A stretch of DNA of 64,000 bases from a virus. Numbering within the stretch: the stretch's first letter is position 1; each line of letters begins with the position of its first letter. A program made the position numbers and the translations under genes. Below the pieces are notes generated by a model. The model had not been told where the DNA came from, did no database searches, and saw only the letters and a list, made by a program, of their open reading frames with translations. Below are positions 2,605 through 19,000 of this stretch, in pieces. Location: positions 1 through 64,000 of the IMG/VR virus record IMGVR_UViG_3300032893_000025, one strand, 5' to 3'.

Positions 2605-3408
2605 ATGGCAGTAAAAAGTAATGCATCAGATAAACAAACAGTAAGAGAATTTACACTCAAAATTGGGCCTGTTTTATGTGGAGTAGAATTAGTTAATCCT
2701 ACACTAGCGCAACTAAGTGCAATAGGATATAATTTCCAGAATGAACCTGAATATAACACACTGGATGACAAAGAAGGGCACGAAAAAGTAAGACTAGATT
2801 TCTATTTAGTTAATTCAACTTTAGGATTTAGACAAAAGGTTACTTTCTTTTTAGAAAATAAAGAAAGAAGTAATAAAGATGGAGATAAGTTTGAATTCAT
2901 TAATAATCAAGCTCAATCTACTTGGGGAACTTCAGTAGAAGAAGTTGTAGCTAAAGTAGGTAAAAATGGTAATACATGGTTTGCTCCAGAAGGTGCAAAA
3001 AAAGCTTTGATTGGAGAAGTAAGTTTGTATAACTTTATCAAAACTTGGGCTAATGTAGAACCTAAAGAAGAATGTGTTCTTGATAATATTAAAGCTGTAT
3101 TTAAAGGTAACTTTAAAGAATTACAAGGATTAGTTAAAATGTTAGCTGACAATACTCTCTGGGTAATGGCAGAAGTCAGCACTAAAGATAATAAATCTTA
3201 TCAATCTGTAAATAATCAGTATTTTGGTAGAGCAACTTCTAAGTTATTTGCTAATAATTTTGCTAAATTTGCAGCAGATCAGAAAGCTTCAGGTTATCCA
3301 TTAAAAAATATTTGGGGGACTGAATTTAAAGACTATATTGCAAAACCAGTAGTTGCAGATGCTGAATCTCAACCTGCTGGAACTGATATTAAAAATGTAG
3401 ATTTTTAA
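2605..3408 (+). CDS. putative single-stranded DNA-binding protein
   Basis: Lies between the AAA ATPase and primase; acidic tail ending in an aromatic residue (...DIKNVDF); crAss-like gene order. Confidence 0.5.
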   Translation: MAVKSNASDKQTVREFTLKIGPVLCGVELVNPTLAQLSAIGYNFQNEPEYNTLDDKEGHEKVRLDFYLVNSTLGFRQKVTFFLENKERSNKDGDKFEFINNQAQSTWGTSVEEVVAKVGKNGNTWFAPEGAKKALIGEVSLYNFIKTWANVEPKEECVLDNIKAVFKGNFKELQGLVKMLADNTLWVMAEVSTKDNKSYQSVNNQYFGRATSKLFANNFAKFAADQKASGYPLKNIWGTEFKDYIAKPVVADAESQPAGTDIKNVDF

Positions 3409-5588: not shown

Positions 5589-6854
5589 ATGGAAGTAGAT
5601 GAGAAAGTAAAAGAAGAAGTAAAAGTAAAACCTAAATATTTTTTTAACGAAGAAAAAGATGAAATGATAAAATTATTTTCAGTTCAATCTTATAGTGGGC
5701 AAGAAACTCTTATGCAAGCTTACGTAATAGAAAGACTATCTAAAATAAAAGGTATTATTTCTATTGAACAGGATAAACACGGAAACATCTTGGCTACCAA
5801 AGGAGTTATAAATACAGGAGAGTTCTACCCCTCTGTAATTGCTCACATGGACACAGTACATGATTTTGAAATAGGATATAAAATAAGACATGGAATAACA
5901 GCAAGTGGTAATAAATTATGGGCTGAGTGTAAACCAAGGAAATTAACAGGTTATCTTTCATCTTATAATAATTATCAATATGATGAATTTACTGGAAGTA
6001 TTGGTGGTTACTATTATAATGGTAAAACTAAAAGATGGGAGCTAGAGAATAAAAGTAAAAAGAATACTCCTAAAATGTCTATAAGTGCTGGGATTGGTGG
6101 AGATGATGGAAATGGAATATGGCTTGCGCTAAAGATGATGGAAGAAAAGGATGTGATAAAAGGTGTATTCACAGTTCAAGAAGAAACTGGAGCTGTTGGT
6201 GCAAAAAATCTTGATTTATCATTCTTCAGTAACGTAGGTTATATTATAGAGGGGGATAGACGTGGTAGTAAAGATATTGTAACATCAATATGGCAACCTA
6301 TTTGCTCAGACAAGTTCATAGCAGACATTGAAGATTTAACAGATAAATTTGGGTTTGAAGAAATAAAAGGAATGATAACTGATGTATCAGCTTTAACTGA
6401 TAATAAAGTAGGAGTATCTTGTATTAATTTGTCTGTTGGATATTATAATCCTCATACATTTGATGAATACATTATTGCAGAAGAAATGTTTCATACTACT
6501 CAATTTGTCAGTGAAGTAATTGATAAATTAGGAAAAACTAAATATGAACATATTTATATTCCTAAAACTTATTATAGCAAACCAGCAACTTATGGAAAGT
6601 ATTTTAGTAAATATGATGACTGGTATGATGATTATAAATACGATGATTACTCAGACTTTAAACCTGTTAAATCTACTCCTGTAAGACAATGTTCTTGTGC
6701 TTCTGAATTAATAGATTTAGATTGTCCTATTCATAATCCTACAGTAGAAATAGGAGATACTAATTTATTCTGTGAATGCGGAACAGAAGTAATAGAGAAA
6801 GAAAAAACCTATTACTGTCCAGTATGCGGAAAACATTTTGTAACAAAGAACTAA
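5589..6854 (+). CDS. M20/M28-family zinc peptidase with C-terminal Cys/His zinc-ribbon motifs
   Basis: AHMDTVH, GGDDGNG, QEETG, DRRG, GYYNPHT; C-terminal CSC..CPIH and CECG..CPVC. Confidence 0.8.
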   Translation: MEVDEKVKEEVKVKPKYFFNEEKDEMIKLFSVQSYSGQETLMQAYVIERLSKIKGIISIEQDKHGNILATKGVINTGEFYPSVIAHMDTVHDFEIGYKIRHGITASGNKLWAECKPRKLTGYLSSYNNYQYDEFTGSIGGYYYNGKTKRWELENKSKKNTPKMSISAGIGGDDGNGIWLALKMMEEKDVIKGVFTVQEETGAVGAKNLDLSFFSNVGYIIEGDRRGSKDIVTSIWQPICSDKFIADIEDLTDKFGFEEIKGMITDVSALTDNKVGVSCINLSVGYYNPHTFDEYIIAEEMFHTTQFVSEVIDKLGKTKYEHIYIPKTYYSKPATYGKYFSKYDDWYDDYKYDDYSDFKPVKSTPVRQCSCASELIDLDCPIHNPTVEIGDTNLFCECGTEVIEKEKTYYCPVCGKHFVTKN

Positions 6855-7636: not shown

Positions 7637-9169
7637 ATGATAATTGGAGAAAAATTAAAAAGGTTATTAGAAAATAACAAATCTAATAATATCTGCAAAC
7701 AATTTCTAAAGAAAGAAAAAGAAGATGAATGGATAAATGATATAGGGTATTTAGATATTGCTATAACCAATCCTAATAAAATAGGATATATATCAATAGA
7801 TAGAAAAGAAAGATTTGGTAAAAATGTTGAAAATTATATATCAGATAAGATTATAGATAAAATAGTACAACCAACAAAAGAGTATTGGGTAACTCATTAT
7901 GATCTAAGTATATATAGAACCTGGAAAGATAAAACATGGAGAGTGAGAAATGTTGATAATGAATATAAACAAATTAGATGTAGTTGTTTGGAAATAAATC
8001 AGGATTTAAATTTTAACTTATCAGATTTAAAACAAAGTTCTAATTTAATTAAAACTTATTGCGAAATAAAAGTAATTTATAACTTCTTTGATGAAACTTT
8101 AAGAAGTAAATTTGCATATATGACATCTCCTGGTAAATTGGTAAATAAATTAGAAATAACAGCTTCAAATAAAGAAGTACAAGAATTTGCTACTTTATTT
8201 TACCAAGATATTATAGGATTGGCTATAGATGGGTTACATTTTGAGTTAATGAATGGTGAAAGTATTAGAAAATATTATTATGAAGGATCATATTCAAGAA
8301 AAGGGGGTACACTTAATTCAAGTTGTATGCGACATGAACAATGCAAACCATTTATGGATATTTATGCAAAGAATGAAGAAAAAGTAAGTTTGCTGGTTTT
8401 ATTTAATAATCAAGATAAAGTTGAAGGTAGGGCATTAGTTTGGAAATGTAATAAAGAAGAAGATAAGGATGAAATAACTCTCATGGATAGAATATATGTG
8501 ACTAATGATAATTATGTAGAGTATTTTAGAACTTATGCTAAAAACAAAAAATGGCATTATAAATGGCAACAAGATGCTAGTTATAAAAAAGAAATAATTT
8601 GTCCTCCAGAATATACTAAAAAAACAATGGATTTATATGTAGACTTAAAAACAAAATTTAGTAGTTATCCTTATTTAGATACTTTCACGTATATGTCTGA
8701 AGATAGATTAAGAAATAATGGTAATTTTGAACACAGATATGAGTTATGCTCAATAGGGGGAGAACCAAGAATTGATGAAGAAGAACCAACAGTATTTTCA
8801 GAATATTATGATGAAGATATTCCAGAAGATGACGCTGTATATTCAAATTATCTGAGTAGTTGGATTTGGGATGATGAATCTTGTACTGTAACCATAAATG
8901 GAAGAAGTGATTATATGCCAACAGACCATGATGAAATATATTATGTGAAAGGTAATTATTATTTTAAAGACTATGTAATATTTTCTAAATGGGAAGATGA
9001 GTATATACCAAAAGAAGATTCAGTATTCTCTAATTATCATAATAGTTATATGTTAGAAAGAAAATGTACTTTCTATAATGAAGATTATATACATAGAGAT
9101 TATATTGATGAATACAAAGAATCAATAGAAGAAAAGAAAGAAGTAAAAGAAAGTGTTGGTAATGAGTAA
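7637..9169 (+). CDS. conserved phage protein (SCM...GRALVW...MDRIY...YPYLDT) with acidic/aromatic C-terminal repeats
   Basis: Motifs read directly in the translation; function unknown. Confidence 0.65.
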   Translation: MIIGEKLKRLLENNKSNNICKQFLKKEKEDEWINDIGYLDIAITNPNKIGYISIDRKERFGKNVENYISDKIIDKIVQPTKEYWVTHYDLSIYRTWKDKTWRVRNVDNEYKQIRCSCLEINQDLNFNLSDLKQSSNLIKTYCEIKVIYNFFDETLRSKFAYMTSPGKLVNKLEITASNKEVQEFATLFYQDIIGLAIDGLHFELMNGESIRKYYYEGSYSRKGGTLNSSCMRHEQCKPFMDIYAKNEEKVSLLVLFNNQDKVEGRALVWKCNKEEDKDEITLMDRIYVTNDNYVEYFRTYAKNKKWHYKWQQDASYKKEIICPPEYTKKTMDLYVDLKTKFSSYPYLDTFTYMSEDRLRNNGNFEHRYELCSIGGEPRIDEEEPTVFSEYYDEDIPEDDAVYSNYLSSWIWDDESCTVTINGRSDYMPTDHDEIYYVKGNYYFKDYVIFSKWEDEYIPKEDSVFSNYHNSYMLERKCTFYNEDYIHRDYIDEYKESIEEKKEVKESVGNE

Positions 9170-12976: not shown

Positions 12977-13523
12977 AAATTACTATTTTACATCTGACTT
13001 ACATTTAGGACATACAAATATTCTAAAATATGATAATAGACCCTTTTCTAGTATAAGAGATCACGATAAAACCATTATTAATAATTGGAATAGTATTGTC
13101 AATGATGAAGATGATATATTCTTTCTTGGAGATTTTGCTTTAACCTATCCTAGTTATGCAGAAAATTTGATGTTACAATTACAAGGAAATAAATATTTCA
13201 TTAAAGGTAATCACGATAAAAAAGATATTCTTAAATTATATCAAAAGTATGGAACTTACTTAGGAGAGTTAAAAGAAATAGAAATTAATAATCAAAAGAT
13301 TGTATTATGTCATTATGCAATGTTGGTATGGAATAGATCTCATCACGGAACTTGGCACTTGCACGGACATTCTCATCATAGTTTACCAATTGATAAAAAT
13401 AGTTTAAGATTAGATGTAGGAATTAATGGATGGGATTATATACCAATTTCATTTGGAAAGGTAAAAGAAGAATTAAGTAGAAGAAAATTTAAATCAACAG
13501 ATCATCATGGAGAAAGAATATGA
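12963..13523 (+). CDS. calcineurin-like metallophosphoesterase
   Basis: SDLHLGH, LGDF, GNHD, CHY and HGHSH motifs. Confidence 0.9.
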   Translation: MMMSKNYYFTSDLHLGHTNILKYDNRPFSSIRDHDKTIINNWNSIVNDEDDIFFLGDFALTYPSYAENLMLQLQGNKYFIKGNHDKKDILKLYQKYGTYLGELKEIEINNQKIVLCHYAMLVWNRSHHGTWHLHGHSHHSLPIDKNSLRLDVGINGWDYIPISFGKVKEELSRRKFKSTDHHGERI

Positions 13524-13572
13524 AGAAAAAGTATTAAATTTTAGAAAATAATCTAATAAATTTACATATACT

Positions 13573-14253
13573 ATGAAAATATTAATAGTAGGTGATGTAC
13601 ATGGAAGAAGTAATTGGGAAAATTGGATAGATGATTCTTATGATAAAATAATATTTGTTGGAGATTACGTAGATCATTGGACTATAAGTAATATGAGAAT
13701 TATTGAAAATCTTAATAACATCATATATTTTAAAAAAGATAATCCTAATAAAGTAATATTATTATTAGGCAATCACGATAACCAGTATATGTTTAGCTAC
13801 TCTTCTCATGGATGTAGTGGGTTTAGATCAGAATCTTACTTTGATTTACATGAACTATTCAACAAAGAAAAAGATTTGTTTCAAGCAGCCTACCAGATAG
13901 ATAATTATTTATTTACTCATGCTGGAGTATCCCAAGAATGGTTTGATAGAGAATACCCCTATAAACCTAAATTAAAAAATTTAGCTGAATCTTTTAATAC
14001 AGCATTTAAAATGAAAGAAAGAAGTTTATTTGATGTTGGATATTCAAGAGGAGGATTTCAAGGTGTAGGCGGAATATTTTGGGCTGATAGAAAAGAAACT
14101 CAATCAAATATGCTAATTGATATACATCAGGTTGTAGGGCATACTCATATAGATAAAATAACCACATATTATTTAAATAATGATACTAATTCTAATACAT
14201 CTATAACTTATACAGATTGTGAAAATAGTCCCTATATTTTAGAAATAAATTAA
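13573..14253 (+). CDS. calcineurin-like metallophosphoesterase
   Basis: GDVHG, GDYVD, GNHD, THAG and VGHT motifs. Confidence 0.9.
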   Translation: MKILIVGDVHGRSNWENWIDDSYDKIIFVGDYVDHWTISNMRIIENLNNIIYFKKDNPNKVILLLGNHDNQYMFSYSSHGCSGFRSESYFDLHELFNKEKDLFQAAYQIDNYLFTHAGVSQEWFDREYPYKPKLKNLAESFNTAFKMKERSLFDVGYSRGGFQGVGGIFWADRKETQSNMLIDIHQVVGHTHIDKITTYYLNNDTNSNTSITYTDCENSPYILEIN

Positions 14254-14270
14254 AAACAATTGAAAAATTA

Positions 14271-14302
14271 TTTGGAAGTAATAAAAATATTTTGTAAGTT
14301 TG
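14271..14302 (+). promoter_or_regulatory. Bacteroidota sigma-A-type promoter for tRNA array 1
   Basis: TTTG (14271-14274), 20-nt spacer, TAAGTTTG (14295-14302); matches the TTTG-N19-21-TAnnTTTG consensus. Confidence 0.8.
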
Positions 14303-14306
14303 TAAA

Positions 14307-14378
14307 ATGAATTTGATAATACGACATATAGAACAACCCCAAGAGCCAATAATTATTGGAAGGAAGAACTATATGTAA
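14307..14378 (+). CDS. leader peptide 1 (23 aa, MNLIIRHIEQPQEPIIIGRKNYM) of the tRNA-array attenuator
   Basis: ORF starts right after the promoter; codons 4-15 correspond only to the six downstream tRNAs; its 3' part is the antiterminator strand. Confidence 0.8.
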   Translation: MNLIIRHIEQPQEPIIIGRKNYM

Positions 14379-14430
14379 AAGATATGTTTTGATTTTGTTT
14401 TTAATTAGACAATACACCCCTTCCAGTAGT
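14352..14430 (+). promoter_or_regulatory. antiterminator helix of attenuator 1
   Basis: AUUAUUGGAAGG (14352-14363) pairs over 12 bp, two of them G-U, with CCUUCCAGUAGU (14419-14430), the 5' arm of the terminator. Confidence 0.75.
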
Positions 14431-14455
14431 GAATACTCGAAGGGGTTTTTATTTT
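14416..14455 (+). terminator. intrinsic terminator (attenuator) before tRNA array 1
   Basis: ACCCCTTC-C-AGTA-gtgaa-TACT-C-GAAGGGGT followed by TTTTATTTT, ending 2 nt before the first tRNA. Confidence 0.85.
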
Positions 14456-14457
14456 AA

Positions 14458-14528
14458 CGAGAGTGGGTTGTGGTGGTAGCATCCTGCACTTGGAATGCAG
14501 AGGGGTAGTTCAATTCTAACATTCTCGA
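14458..14528 (+). tRNA. tRNA-Pro(UGG)
   Basis: Acceptor CGAGAGT/ATTCTCG; anticodon arm CTGCA-CT TGG AA-TGCAG. Confidence 0.85.
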
Positions 14529-14535
14529 CAAATAT

Positions 14536-14607
14536 ACTCAGTTCTTCTAATGGTCAGGAAGGTTGTCTTATACACAACTAATTAAAGTTCAAGTCTTTAA
14601 CTGAGTA
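14536..14607 (+). tRNA. tRNA-Ile(UAU)
   Basis: Acceptor ACTCAGT/ACTGAGT, A73; GTTGT-CT TAT AC-ACAAC; T arm TAAAG-TTCAAGT-CTTTA. Confidence 0.85.
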
Positions 14608-14615
14608 CAATATAT

Positions 14616-14687
14616 GGTGTTTGAAGCATTAATGTGATGTGCTTGACTGTGAATCAAGAGAAGATGGGTCAGTACCATCCTTACACC
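14616..14687 (+). tRNA. tRNA-His(GUG)
   Basis: G-1:C73 pair; CTTGA-CT GTG AA-TCAAG. Confidence 0.85.
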
Positions 14688-14692
14688 CAAAT

Positions 14693-14764
14693 GCTACGTT
14701 CGGCAAGTGGTAAGCCACCAGACCTTCAATCTGGTTATCGTGGGTTCGAAACCCACACGTAGTA
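14693..14764 (+). tRNA. tRNA-Glu(UUC)
   Basis: Acceptor GCTACGT/ACGTAGT; CCAGA-CC TTC AA-TCTGG; GTGGG-TTCGAAA-CCCAC. Confidence 0.88.
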
Positions 14765-14770
14765 CTAAAT

Positions 14771-14843
14771 TGGGATTTAGTGTAAATGGAAACCACACAA
14801 GACTTTGACTCTTGTAATGTAGGATCATACCCTACAGTCCCAA
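14771..14843 (+). tRNA. tRNA-Gln(UUG)
   Basis: Acceptor TGGGATT/AGTCCCA; CAAGA-CT TTG AC-TCTTG. Confidence 0.88.
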
Positions 14844-14848
14844 CTAAT

Positions 14849-14923
14849 AGGAATATAGCTTAATTGAATCAAAGCCCTTGTCTACGAAACAAGAGAGTAT
14901 GGGTTTGAGTCCCATTATTCCTA
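14849..14923 (+). tRNA. tRNA-Arg(ACG)
   Basis: Acceptor AGGAATA/TATTCCT; CTTGT-CT ACG AA-ACAAG. Confidence 0.88.
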
Positions 14924-14961
14924 CAAAGTTAAAAAATACTTTAAAAATAAATACTAAAATA

Positions 14962-14993
14962 TTTGGATGTAATAATAAAATTTATTATATTTG
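14962..14993 (+). promoter_or_regulatory. Bacteroidota sigma-A-type promoter for tRNA array 2
   Basis: TTTG (14962-14965), 20-nt spacer, TATATTTG (14986-14993). Confidence 0.8.
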
Positions 14994-15010
14994 TAGAATA
15001 AAATTAAACA

Positions 15011-15091
15011 ATGCAAAGAAGAAATTGGAATATGGTAGCCATTAATGACGGTAAAACAGGAGTTTACTGGAAGGGGAAATTATATTCTTAA
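15011..15091 (+). CDS. leader peptide 2 (26 aa, MQRRNWNMVAINDGKTGVYWKGKLYS) of the tRNA-array attenuator
   Basis: Codons 3-18 cover exactly the 11 amino acids of the downstream tRNAs; codons 20-27 form the antiterminator strand. Confidence 0.8.
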   Translation: MQRRNWNMVAINDGKTGVYWKGKLYS

Positions 15092-15120
15092 TTTAAATAA
15101 GAAATTATAAGTGCCCTTCC
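15069..15120 (+). promoter_or_regulatory. antiterminator hairpin of attenuator 2
   Basis: GGAAGGG (15069-15075)/CCCTTCC (15114-15120), with nested TTATA/TATAA and TTCTTA/TAAGAA helices. Confidence 0.75.
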
Positions 15121-15143
15121 CAAAAAGAAGGGTTTTTTATTTT
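15113..15143 (+). terminator. intrinsic terminator (attenuator) before tRNA array 2
   Basis: GCCCTTC-ccaaaaa-GAAGGGT followed by TTTTTATTTT. Confidence 0.85.
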
Positions 15144-15147
15144 ATAT

Positions 15148-15219
15148 TGGTTAATAACTCAATGGTAGAGTACTTCTCTGATACAGAAGAGGCTGTAGGT
15201 TCAAGTCCTACTTAACCAA
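15148..15219 (+). tRNA. tRNA-Ile(GAU)
   Basis: Acceptor TGGTTAA/TTAACCA; CTTCT-CT GAT AC-AGAAG. Confidence 0.88.
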
Positions 15220-15225
15220 CAATAT

Positions 15226-15294
15226 TGCGGGTAGTTCTGGTGAACCCCTAGTCTCATAAGCTAGTCAAGAAGAGATCGTAACTCTTACCCGCAA
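15226..15294 (+). tRNA. tRNA-Met(CAU); elongator versus initiator uncertain
   Basis: Acceptor TGCGGGT/ACCCGCA; CTAGT-CT CAT AA-GCTAG; short D arm; lacks the three G-C anticodon-stem pairs of initiators. Confidence 0.75.
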
Positions 15295-15301
15295 CTAATA
15301 A

Positions 15302-15374
15302 GGGAGTGAAGCTAAAGTGGGATAGCTGTGGCCTGTTAAGCCAAGGGGTGTAGGATCATTGCCTACCTCTCCCG
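15302..15374 (+). tRNA. tRNA-Asn(GUU)
   Basis: Acceptor GGGAGTG/CTCTCCC, G73; TGGC-CT GTT AA-GCCA. Confidence 0.85.
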
Positions 15375-15384
15375 CAGTACAAAT

Positions 15385-15456
15385 GAATCATTGGTGTAAT
15401 GGATAGCACAGGGGTCTTCTAAGCCCTTAGAAAGAGTTCAAATCTTTTATGATTCG
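15385..15456 (+). tRNA. tRNA-Arg(UCU)
   Basis: Acceptor GAATCAT/ATGATTC; GGGGT-CT TCT AA-GCCCT. Confidence 0.88.
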
Positions 15457-15466
15457 CTAAATACAT

Positions 15467-15536
15467 TGAGGCACTCATAGGAGTGATAAGCAATCTCCAA
15501 AATTGTGACTTATAGGTTCGAGTCCTGTTGCCTCTG
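15467..15536 (+). tRNA. tRNA-Trp(CCA)
   Basis: GAGGCA/TGCCTC acceptor, G73; GCAAT-CT CCA AA-ATTGT; ATAGG-TTCGAGT-CCTGT. Confidence 0.82.
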
Positions 15537-15541
15537 CTAAT

Positions 15542-15616
15542 GGTTTTGTAGGCCTCTTGGTGAGGAGCTTGACTGTCACTCAAGCAGAATAGAGGGATCG
15601 TACCCCTCCAGAACCG
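15542..15616 (+). tRNA. tRNA-Asp(GUC)
   Basis: Acceptor GGTTTTG/CAGAACC, G73; CTTGA-CT GTC AC-TCAAG. Confidence 0.85.
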
Positions 15617-15622
15617 CGATAT

Positions 15623-15694
15623 GGGCCACTAGCATAAAGGATAATGCTCCTTACTTGCAATGAGGAAGATAGAGTTCGAGTCTCTGTGTGTCCA
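15623..15694 (+). tRNA. tRNA-Ala(UGC)
   Basis: G3:U70 alanine identity pair; CCTTA-CT TGC AA-TGAGG; irregular lower acceptor stem. Confidence 0.82.
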
Positions 15695-15764
15695 CTAATT
15701 CTTTATCTTTGATAGGAAATCCGTAAAGGTCTCAAATACTGAACCAGTTAATCAGTATTTAAAT

Positions 15765-15836
15765 GCAGATATAGCACAATGGCTAGTGCGTCTGGCTTCC
15801 ACCCAGAGGATGTGGTTTCAATTACCACTATCTGCT
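15765..15836 (+). tRNA. tRNA-Gly(UCC)
   Basis: Acceptor GCAGATA/TATCTGC, U73; TCTGG-CT TCC AC-CCAGA. Confidence 0.9.
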
Positions 15837-15841
15837 CTAAT

Positions 15842-15913
15842 GCACCTTTAGTATAATGGTTATTATTTTTCCTTTGTAACGAGAAGATGAGGATTCAATT
15901 TCTTCAAGGTGCT
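15842..15913 (+). tRNA. tRNA-Thr(UGU)
   Basis: Acceptor GCACCTT/AAGGTGC; TTTCC-TT TGT AA-CGAGA with a C31:C39 mismatch. Confidence 0.78.
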
Positions 15914-15917
15914 CTAT

Positions 15918-15988
15918 GACTCTTTAGCAAAGCGGATATGCTCCACTCTTTTAAAGTGGCGGGAATGGTTCAACTCCATTAAGAGTCA
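15918..15988 (+). tRNA. tRNA-Lys(UUU)
   Basis: Acceptor GACTCTT/AAGAGTC; CCACT-CT TTT AA-AGTGG. Confidence 0.88.
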
Positions 15989-15994
15989 CAAAAT

Positions 15995-16070
15995 ACTTCC
16001 TTAGCTCAGTTGGTTTAGTAGCACTTGTTTTACACACAAGATGTCAAAGGTTCGAATCCTTTAGGAAGTA
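15995..16070 (+). tRNA. tRNA-Val(UAC)
   Basis: Acceptor ACTTCCT/AGGAAGT; CTTGT-TT TAC AC-ACAAG; AAAGG-TTCGAAT-CCTTT. Confidence 0.92.
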
Positions 16071-16090
16071 CAAAAAATTTGTGTCTCAGA

Positions 16091-19000
16091 TTATTTATTT
16101 ATTATCTGTTGTGTCAATGACTGAATTCTTGCAGTAGTATTAGTTAAAGGAAACCAATTCTTTATAGCTACCCAAGTTTTAGATTGATCCTTATAAATTC
16201 CTTGATGATACATATCATCCCCTCCTGTTATTAATGTTGTAGCTCTTGCTAGTACTTTTTCTGTATCAGTAATTACTTTAGCCATTGGTAAAGGATCTCT
16301 TAATATAGTTTTAAATTGAATAGGATCAATATAAAAATCTATATCCATCTGCATCCTATTAAGTTGATTAATCCAGAAGAAAGATAAATATTTTATATCA
16401 GATTCATCATCGTCATCATTTAAAATGACTCCTTTAATTAATAAAGCCAATGCTGTAACAGCTATCATAGACATTATTTCTGTTAAATTAGCTCTCATAT
16501 TAGCAGCATCTACATCATCTAATCTAGACAAATTAGTTTTCTGAAAAGCTATTTTTCTTAGTAACTGTAATGTACCGTTAAATACCCCACCAAAGTAGCC
16601 ATATCTATCAAAAAACTGCCCATAACTTCTCCATCTACCTTTCTGTTCAATACCACTAATAGGATTCACCTTACCAGCGTCCATTTGTCCAAGTCTTGTA
16701 TAATATGCATTAATCATCCATTTTCTAAATACTAATAAGGATCTTCCTAATATTGTTGAATTAGCAGGTATTGGAGAGTCTGGATCATAGTTACCATGAA
16801 TATCTTTTATAACCTTATCTATCTTTAATTTAGTATTTGCCTCTAAATTTGATGGCATTTCAACTCCATTTAATAATTCTCCATTATCATTATAAGCTTC
16901 AAATAAAGATATATCTTTTCCATTTAATTTAACTTTAGTGTTTAATAACATAGCTATCATTACAGGAGCCTGATTTAAATATTCAGATCTACTCTGTAAT
17001 GTAAAGGGAGCTAACCAATTAATTCCTTTTTTAACTCTTTCAGATACATATATTTCATTTTGTAGTTCTTTTAGAGTATCATATCTATCCATTAAATGTC
17101 TAACTTTATTCATTTGAGATAAGGTTAAGTTATACCCTTTATGAAGCTGAGCATTATTAAATCTTCTACCATCAGAGCCTTCTATAAGATTATTAACATA
17201 GCCCACTGTGGAATTCATTATAGGGGAGAAAAAATTCCATCCTAATCCCTTTAATCTAACCCACATATTAAGTTGGTCTCCAATTTTAGAACCTGCTTTT
17301 ACTCCTCCTAATTCAGATAATTGCTTTTCTAATTTTCTATCTATTTGTAGAAATTCTTTCTTAGTTATGTTATGTTCATCAAAATCTTTTATGTTTTGAG
17401 CCTTTAAAGCCTCTATTTCTTCTCTTACTTTTTGCTCTTTGGATGTATATACTTTTTTTCCAAATTTTAATTCTACCTTATGCATAGCTTCTCCATAAAA
17501 CTTCTTCATAAAATATTCTACAGAATCTTTAAAGTTATTCAATCCTTTCTTAGAGATAGGATCTCCATATTGGTCATTTATAACTTCACCAGCATTATTA
17601 GTTTCTTGTTCTAAAGCATTATTAATAATACCCTGAGTAATACTCATAGCATCCTCAATTTTAGCTTTATGTTTAAACCCAATAGCCATTAATGAATAAG
17701 CTTTTACTAGTTTTTCTAAATCATTACTTCTTTCATTAGCAACCTGATCTTTAATTTCTCTAGTCCATTCTTGTATTTGTTCTACAGTTGGAGTATTTCC
17801 AGTTTGTTGTTTAAGTTCTAAAGACTTTCTGAATATATAATCTTTAATTATTTTATCAATATTGGTTATATATCTTACTCTTAACTCTCTTTCTCTCTCA
17901 CCTTCAACATCTCTTTTTTCACTAGATTCTGTAGTTACAGATCCTTTAGTTCTTATACTTTCTTTCCATAAATCCCATATAGGAGTTAACCCACCACTCA
18001 TACCATTTTGGGTATACTGTTCTATTAAAGTCTTTTCCATAAAAGGAAGAGTATTAACCTGAAACTCTTCGGTCATATCTGATGGTAAATAAGAATTTAC
18101 TTCATGTAGAGTATCTATGATATAGTTATATAAAGCTAATAGCTTATCATTGTTTTCTATTTTTTCAAAGTTTTTATCATAAAATTCAGTATTCTTGCCA
18201 TTAACAATTCTTCTAGGTACAGTCTTTGTATATCTATTGCTTGGGGTTATATAATCTCCTGCTACTTTTTGTATAGTACCTTCAAAAAAGTTTTCTGCAA
18301 CTAAATAAGGACTAAATTTAGCATCATATTCTCTTATTTTTATTTCCTTAGCAGCATCTTCTAGTAAATCATCGTCTAATTGAGATATAAAAACATCTCT
18401 ATCATCTTTAAATTGTTTAAGTTGCTTTTCAGCAGCTTCTAAATAAAATTTATATCCTTTTTGTCCCAAATTAGTTATTAATTCTTGTCTGTGATTCTGT
18501 ATATCACTATCACTAAAGCTATTTTCATATAAATCCTTATTGGGAAACAATTTTCTAGCATCTAACATTAGAGAGTATTTCTTAGTTTCCGTAATATAAT
18601 CTCTAATAAGTTTATTTTTTTGTTTTCTTCTTTCTTCTGGGTCAGCAATTTCATCAGCAAGGTTTAATTCTTTTTTAAAATTTCTGCTTCTAGCTTTATT
18701 CCAATCGAAATAAGCTTGGGTATATCTATAAGTTAAATCTCCAGTTTTCCTATTATCTGTATTACTTGCTCTTTGAGCAAACAATTCATTAATATCCTTT
18801 TTACTATAAGATTTACCTATTTCTTTAAATACATCATCTAAACCATCAAATACATACTTAGCTTCTTTATGTGTTTCAAAGCTTGCTTCCTTATTCCATA
18901 CAAACATACTTTTAGCTAAGATATTATCTGTTTCACTAATATCTAAAGTAAGACTTGTTAATTTACCAACATCTGTTAGTAAAGCTTTATAATCAACATT

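Follow-up and report, generated by a model that had tools for sequence, protein, structure and literature searches.

A candidate leader-peptide attenuator that lists the tRNAs of an 11-gene array in a crAss-like phage

The stretch of viral DNA analyzed here (positions 1 to 64,000 of IMG/VR record IMGVR_UViG_3300032893_000025, hereafter the window) makes up the initial 64 kb of a phage contig (79,335 bp, 29% G+C) that was assembled from a wetland metagenome. It carries an array of 11 tRNA genes (array 2, 15148-16071) preceded by a short open reading frame (ORF), leader 2 (15011-15091), which contains a row of codons that samples every tRNA type in the array and is followed by two alternative RNA hairpins. 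Judging from these elements and from folding models, leader 2 probably acts as a transcription attenuator of the ribosome-mediated (leader-peptide) type and controls the transcription of array 2. The initial annotation had proposed an attenuator at this position, and that reading is supported by the fact that every predicted structural element could be found and is correctly placed. A sister unit (leader 1 and array 1) lies immediately upstream, and leaders of the same design, each matched to its own array, recur in other phages. Unless stated otherwise, features are on the plus strand, and coordinates are those of the window.

Leader 2 enumerates the tRNAs of the array behind it

Leader 2 is composed of 26 codons and a stop codon, with its ATG at 15011 and its TAA at 15089-15091, and would encode the peptide M Q R R N W N M V A I N D G K T G V Y W K G K L Y S. 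The codon row described in the initial annotation is indeed present: codons 3-18 (15017-15064) read AGA AGA AAT TGG AAT ATG GTA GCC ATT AAT GAC GGT AAA ACA GGA GTT and, as had been claimed, they use all, and only, the amino acids of the 11 tRNAs of array 2. The match is complete at the amino-acid level, and 13 of the 16 codons are cognate to a tRNA of the array under strict wobble rules. All 11 types have already been sampled within codons 3-16 (15017-15058; R R N W N M V A I N D G K T), which we call the sensing segment, since the Gly and Val codons that follow (17-18; 15059-15064) add no new type and fall outside the sensing window of the folding model presented below. There is no Shine-Dalgarno sequence before the ORF, and its A-rich start context is like that of genuine genes of the phage, the upstream regions of which are 52% A, with a Shine-Dalgarno sequence in 5 of 52 long ORFs.

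Chance expectations were computed with the codon usage of 39 long ORFs of the window. The probability that 16 random codons are all cognate and, in addition, cover all 11 tRNAs is ~5e-7 if U34 is allowed to read family boxes, and ~1e-8 under strict wobble. In a whole-ORF test, for which no sub-window is chosen and which counts ORFs with at least the observed number of cognate codons and at least the observed number of tRNAs covered, P for leader 2 ranges from ~3e-4 (family) to 1e-3 (strict). Moreover, when 127,834 sliding windows of 27 codons were examined in the six frames of the 64 kb, at least 9 of the 11 tRNAs were found in one uninterrupted run only in those that overlap leader 2, and the best of the others reaches 8 of 11.

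Two mutually exclusive hairpins precede the array

Upstream of leader 2, a regular-expression scan identified a Bacteroidota-type promoter-like motif (TTTG-N20-TAnnTTTG) at 14962-14993, which ends 18 nt before the ATG and from which transcripts are predicted to start at about 14997-14999. Eight such sites are present in the whole 79-kb genome, against ~4 +/- 2 expected, and two of them are found directly before the two leaders, where they have in common the exact 16-mer TATTTGGAWGTAATAA.

Immediately before the array lies a predicted intrinsic terminator (15113-15143), with a G+C stem (15113-15133), a loop (15120-15126) and a U-tract (15133-15138 and 15140-15143, T6-A-T4). It ends 5 nt before the first tRNA gene, at 15143, and transcription is predicted to stop at ~15138, nine bases before that gene. 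The alternative structure is an antiterminator hairpin (15069-15120; dG = -17.6 kcal/mol, z = -3.3), at the base of which GGAAGGG (15069-15075, codons 20-22) pairs with CCCUUCC (15114-15120), that is, with the 5' arm of the terminator, and the stop codon (15089-15091) is located near its apex. This bears out the hairpin that the initial annotation had drawn, with codons 20-27 as its 5' strand and CCCTTCC sequestered. The terminator and the antiterminator are both significant, and they are mutually exclusive. A further segment, region 1 (15022-15036), pairs with region 2 (15079-15094) in the predicted fold of the untranslated full-length RNA, which frees the terminator. In the minimum free energy fold of 15000-15146, this pairing and the terminator are both formed, which corresponds to the classical 1:2 plus 3:4 state. 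A scan of viral contigs for the pattern GGAAGG...CCCTTCC...GAAGGG returned a single match, an unrelated terminator (L082).

A second short plus-strand ORF, at 15045-15110, overlaps leader 2 in the +1 frame (M T V K Q E F T G R G N Y I L N L N K K L). It stops 3 nt 5' of the terminator stem, and a ribosome at that point would melt the antiterminator too. Considered as a sensing leader, this ORF covers just 8 of the 11 types and has no run, and it is probably incidental.

The modeled switch lies directly behind the codon row

We modeled the effect of translation by masking a ribosome footprint (-15 to +12 relative to the first base of the A site) at each codon and folding the RNA. In nascent RNA ending before the 3' arm of the terminator, the P of the antiterminator helix stays at or above 0.9 for every A-site position from codon 2 to codon 16 and does not exceed 0.14 from codon 17 to codon 27. 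In RNA that includes the terminator, folded at equilibrium, the antiterminator is predicted at codons 3-15, the two structures tie at codon 16, and the terminator is predicted at codons 17-27 and also without a ribosome, the full-length P(terminator) then being 1.00. The boundary between keeping and losing the antiterminator is at codons 16/17, directly past the last new tRNA type to be sampled (Thr, codon 16). This boundary was free to fall anywhere in the model, and it lands right behind the codon enumeration.

These features suggest a mechanism in which we infer that the leader ORF is translated, that transcription can terminate before the array and that the outcome responds to tRNA supply. 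A host-type RNA polymerase would start near 14998, and a ribosome would translate the 26-codon ORF behind it. If codons 3-16 are decoded fast, the ribosome would reach codons 17-27 and cover GGAAGGG and the remainder of the antiterminator 5' strand, leaving CCCUUCC to pair with GAAGGG, and transcription would stop at ~15138. If decoding is slow at any of the sensing codons, whether because the corresponding tRNA is in short supply in the host, has been cleaved or lacks its amino acid, the ribosome would wait upstream, the antiterminator (15069-15120) would form first, the terminator would be blocked, and the polymerase would read into the array. The regulated products would be the very molecules that are sensed, and the scheme would therefore amount to a demand-driven feedback loop, in which the tRNAs of the array speed up translation of the leader and turn the array off again. 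The signal could be a low host supply for the A/T-ending codons of the phage or a loss of tRNAs to host nucleases, which the sequence separates neither from each other nor from amino-acid starvation.

A sister unit matches a different array

The second unit, leader 1, would act likewise on array 1 (14458-14924), which comprises tRNA-Pro(UGG), tRNA-Ile(UAU), tRNA-His(GUG) (14617-14688), tRNA-Glu(UUC), tRNA-Gln(UUG) and tRNA-Arg(ACG) (14849-14924). It has the same layout: a promoter motif (14271-14302) ending 5 nt before the ATG, an ORF (14307-14378) that would encode M N L I I R H I E Q P Q E P I I I G R K N Y M, a predicted antiterminator (14352-14430) and a predicted terminator (14416-14446). 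Here, 12 consecutive codons (ATA ATA CGA CAT ATA GAA CAA CCC CAA GAG CCA ATA) sample all six tRNAs of array 1, the whole-ORF test gives P ~2.5e-6, and the modeled boundary falls at codons 12-15, all six types having been sampled by codon 11. The cross-match between the two units is near nil, with only 1 of 25 leader 2 codons cognate to array 1. The two leaders even split isoacceptors, as leader 1 uses ATA and CGA, in step with tRNA-Ile(UAU) and tRNA-Arg(ACG), and leader 2 uses ATT and AGA, in step with tRNA-Ile(GAU) and tRNA-Arg(UCU). Since CGA is almost unused in the phage genes (0.5 per 1000 codons), its presence in leader 1 is no by-product of codon usage.

The rarity of CGA extends to the whole CGN box, which is near-absent from the long ORFs of the phage despite the tRNA-Arg(ACG) gene (CGT 1.6, CGC 0.3, CGA 0.5 and CGG 0 per 1000). 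This tRNA is therefore not explicable as codon compensation for the phage's own genes.

Leaders of the same design recur in other phages

We gathered 80 viral and 80 metagenome loci via the phosphatase gene that neighbors the tRNA region, which means that they were not selected for leaders, and searched them with a detector that requires an ATG-initiated ORF and then a terminator within ~100 nt of a tRNA array. It picked up independent cases in other, uncultured phages. In one locus (L025), a leader on the reverse complement (357-431), M N N S T Q N T M F Q Q G T T G R P V A P C L V, which contains QQGTTGRPVAPC, precedes tRNAs for Thr, Pro, Arg, Cys, Gly, Val, Gln and Ala and matches 8/8. Three copies of one word in this locus yield 1:2, 2:3 and 3:4 pairings. 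A 129-kb record (G002, behind loci L081 and L166) holds at least three codon-matched leader units among its 38 tRNA genes, all located here on the reverse complement of L166. The first, G002a (3067-3165), precedes tRNAs for Phe, Trp, Ile, Val, Ala, Asn, Asp, Lys and Tyr and matches 9/9; the second, G002b (6417-6512), precedes tRNAs for Pro, Arg and Cys and is a weak match; the third, G002c (8983-9057), M R T S S T L S L T S L Q H L T R S... (MRTSSTLSLTSLQHLTRS), matches 7/7 and is followed by tRNAs for His, Ser, Ser, Arg, Gln, Gln, Thr and Thr, then Leu. Whole-ORF P values are ~2.5e-6 or lower for L025 and G002c, ~3e-3 to 7e-3 for G002a and 0.02 to 0.2 for G002b. The leader peptides have no sequence in common, either between leaders or between phages, and are alike only in that each matches its own array. 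On a generic measure, which asks whether the 5' arm of the terminator is already paired, the geometry in which the boundary follows the enumeration is also seen in L025, G002a and G002b.

Across the fetched loci, an upstream ORF fully samples 5 of the 12 distinct arrays with at least five different anticodons, two of these five being the window's own. When arrays were reassigned at random, 0.57 +/- 0.72 were fully sampled, and none of 3000 permutations reached five. Upstream ORFs that sample everything are also found before arrays with three anticodons, at L106 4057 and L022 2568 (Trp, Glu, Glu, Val), L088 669, L089 797 and L144 9439. With so few types, chance easily explains full sampling in these cases.

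The tRNAs of array 2 and the setting of the tRNA blocks

Array 2 consists of genes for tRNA-Ile(GAU) (15148-15220), tRNA-Met(CAU) (15226-15295), tRNA-Asn(GUU) (15302-15375), tRNA-Arg(UCU) (15385-15457), tRNA-Trp(CCA) (15467-15537), tRNA-Asp(GUC) (15542-15617), tRNA-Ala(UGC) (15623-15693), tRNA-Gly(UCC) (15765-15837), tRNA-Thr(UGU) (15842-15914), tRNA-Lys(UUU) (15918-15989) and tRNA-Val(UAC) (15995-16071). A 71-nt spacer between tRNA-Ala and tRNA-Gly (15694-15764) is not a tRNA and is predicted to form two small hairpins (-11.2 kcal/mol). At its default threshold, ARAGORN reports Ile, Asn, Arg, Asp, Ala, Gly, Lys, Val and the gene at 15842-15914; Met and Trp are added only when the threshold is relaxed to 95% of its default value, and the Rfam tRNA model misses both. 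The D-arms of these two are truncated or mismatched, which could reflect either an unusual tRNA structure in this phage or gene decay.

Two identities required a closer look. ARAGORN calls the gene at 15842-15914 Tyr(GUA). We set this call aside in favor of Thr(UGU) because of the loop placement in the Infernal alignment, where the 7-nt loop UUUGUAA yields the anticodon UGU in canonical geometry, and because of the short, 4-nt variable loop. The loop sequence is identical in the tRNA-Thr of IAS virus, whose Tyr tRNA has a long variable arm that the gene at 15842-15914 lacks. If the gene were nevertheless Tyr, both TAC and TAT also occur in the leader 2 ORF. The Thr assignment of the initial annotation and its list of 11 tRNAs thus stand, with two members below threshold and one isotype disputed between tools. 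As for the CAU tRNA, which the initial annotation had suggested to be an elongator Met, pairing between positions 1 and 72 and an anticodon stem that lacks a G-C triplet show that it is not an initiator, and it could be either an elongator Met or a lysidine-modified Ile. The presence of a tRNA-Ile(UAU) gene in array 1 and of ATG, without ATA, in leader 2 would fit a Met identity.

The phage is crAss-like. The major head protein shares 31-33% identity with its counterparts in Cellulophaga phage phi14:2 and gut crAss-like phages, and all the hosts listed with a genus name are Bacteroidota. Every tRNA gene of the contig falls in one of two blocks (14458-14924 and 15148-16071), both placed between plus-strand replication-type genes and minus-strand virion genes. 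The tRNA region adjoins a minus-strand ORF of 4442 aa, a size that would be expected of a crAss-type virion RNA polymerase polyprotein, and its neighbors include the phosphatase gene, with P0002-P0005 as closest homologues, and a 1198-aa ORF, for which P0122 was the sole homologue found. Single-protein searches for related loci with either neighboring gene returned nothing in viral contigs. Contigs from two source datasets were identical to the window wherever they covered it, with zero variants, no RNA run was listed among the datasets that contain this DNA, and a blastn search of phage records with 13000-17500 found scattered tRNA similarity and nothing else.

Evidence against attenuation and alternative explanations

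Several observations weigh against attenuation of the array by leader 2. Two of the 11 tRNAs of array 2 (Met and Trp) are sub-threshold predictions, and 3 of the 16 codons (GCC, GGT and GTT) require U34 to read C or U, remaining unread under strict wobble. Most tRNA types have one leader codon each, where classical attenuators use codon runs, and this may make for low sensitivity to a mild tRNA shortage. The 11 isotypes cover ~56% of the codon usage of the phage, which is why the whole-ORF test for leader 2 alone gives only 3e-4 to 1e-3. On the structural side, nascent folds form the antiterminator even without a ribosome, whereas the full-length equilibrium prefers the terminator, and the untranslated state is therefore ambiguous. 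For leader 1, the equilibrium prefers the terminator for stalls at codons 8-15, and this leader would thus need kinetic control, as does the classical trp leader. The generic measure that recovers the switch geometry in three of the other leaders shows no switch in G002c.

The comparative record contributes to the same side of the balance. No close relative carrying the arrays was found, and there is accordingly no orthologous leader to compare; among the metagenome loci, the phosphatase gene most similar to that of the window (L083, 69% identity) is not followed by tRNAs. Likewise, no such leader was seen in the cultured relatives crAss001, IAS virus and phi14:2, the last of which has no annotated tRNA in its first 50 kb. 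In crAss001 (L165, 1560-1681), the first tRNA block is directly behind a TTTG...TAnnTTTG promoter, with neither leader ORF nor terminator, which means that a demand-control design is not general among crAss-like phages.

The explanation that competes best keeps the same hardware and changes the signal. Leader 2 would then report general translation status, such as ribosome availability, inhibitors or amino-acid starvation, and the array would be a translation-stress regulon. Such a mechanism is blind to whether a tRNA is absent, cleaved or uncharged, single codons per type offer weak specificity, and the only published stress-controlled tRNA array, the Anabaena trn operon, responds to general translation impairment (PMC8421152; PMC10272220). 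However, a general sensor would need neither an exact enumeration of the isotypes of the array, nor a split of the Ile and Arg isoacceptors between leaders in step with their arrays, nor a leader rewritten for each array in other phages, and we regard this explanation as unlikely.

We give far less credit to coincidence, that is, to an ordinary promoter and terminator that lie between two tRNA blocks, with a short ORF whose richness in common amino acids is fortuitous. Short ORFs are plentiful in AT-rich spacers, the promoter motif is just ~twofold enriched genome-wide, and the 11 isotypes take up ~56% of codon usage. Yet leader 2 is the unique six-frame maximum in 64 kb (P 5e-7 for the run of codons, 3e-4 for the ORF as a whole), leader 1 repeats the design with a match to a different array (P ~2.5e-6), the design recurs in unrelated phages, and the permutation test is significant. 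Furthermore, it is hard to see why an array with its own promoter 150 nt upstream would have a terminator 9 nt before its first gene if that terminator were not conditional.

It is also highly improbable that attenuation is not involved at all, either because the hairpins are processing or stability elements of the tRNA precursor or because the ORF encodes a small functional peptide. tRNA precursors do require 5' processing, and another hairpin pair is found within the array (15694-15764), but the 3' hairpin of the leader is a canonical G+C stem followed by a U-tract, and the alternative pairing takes exactly the 5' arm of the terminator. The leader peptides, for their part, have no sequence in common and are alike only in their array match. 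Finally, ribosome-free sensing, in which the codon row, complementary to the anticodons by construction, would bind them directly like a T-box specifier and change the fold, is barely credible given that no T-box or other Rfam riboswitch matches at E up to 1, that the row is in frame with the ATG and the stop codon is inside the antiterminator, that the switch boundary fits a ribosome footprint in our model, and that three-base contacts with 11 tRNAs without a scaffold seem implausible.

Implications and comparison with known systems

The purpose and control of phage tRNAs are still argued, the two main views being compensation for codon usage and replacement of tRNAs cut by host defenses. With leader-peptide attenuation as the probable function of leader 2, we narrowly favor a broader conclusion, which is that some phages may run their tRNA arrays on demand. 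In such phages, a mini-ORF would serve as a "decoding-capacity meter" listing one codon per tRNA of the array, and any shortage, be it of a tRNA lacking in the host or of one cut by a host anticodon nuclease, would release the whole set and restore decoding. If this is true, the leaders are a sequence-readable record of the isoacceptors that a phage treats as limiting and a direct read-out of what it senses. They would also provide a new annotation signal, in which the leader predicts the content of the array and can help assign ambiguous tRNAs, here the CAU tRNA as Met and the gene at 15842-15914 as Thr. It would further follow that Bacteroidota phages, which do without Shine-Dalgarno sequences, can use coupled transcription-translation control. 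Full-text literature searches found no published account of attenuation of tRNA genes, and leader 2 would be the first attenuator known to control such genes, as well as the most multivalent leader peptide known.

The organization of leader 2 is that of the multivalent leaders of enterobacteria, with a short ORF, regulatory codons upstream of the partner of the terminator 5' arm, an intrinsic terminator and a stall that would lead to read-through. Along with the trp, his, leu and phe attenuators, these bacteria have a thr leader with Thr and Ile codons and an ilvGMEDA leader with Ile, Leu and Val codons, so that one leader senses more than one amino acid, as leader 2 would. There are, however, clear differences. 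The target of the phage leader would be tRNA genes rather than biosynthetic enzymes, and the product is itself what would be sensed. Instead of runs for one to three amino acids, the phage ORF lists 11 isotypes (six in leader 1), mostly once each, with a match at the level of isoacceptors, and it does so in a Bacteroidota phage and without a Shine-Dalgarno sequence. A component of the translation apparatus is under leader-peptide attenuation in Escherichia coli too, where the pheM leader controls the phenylalanyl-tRNA synthetase operon pheST in response to the supply of Phe-tRNA. In that case, however, the target is a cellular gene for a synthetase, and the leader senses one amino acid only, by means of successive Phe codons.

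T-box riboswitches (RF00230) likewise sense the status of tRNAs and rely on competing terminator and antiterminator structures, but they bind one uncharged tRNA without a ribosome, carry the conserved T-box sequence and regulate synthetase or amino-acid genes. The T-box covariance model has no match in 13500-17000 (cmscan, E up to 1), where just tRNAs and weak chance matches are reported.

The nearest published example of a regulated extra tRNA array is the trn operon of Anabaena sp. PCC 7120, a long, stress-induced array that is controlled at the promoter via direct repeats and the repressor TrcR (PMC8421152; PMC10272220); the words attenuation and leader peptide appear in neither paper. The trn operon is a supernumerary and horizontally mobile tRNA array, silent by default and turned on when translation is impaired, a description that would also fit array 2. 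The phage array is preceded by a terminator/antiterminator unit.

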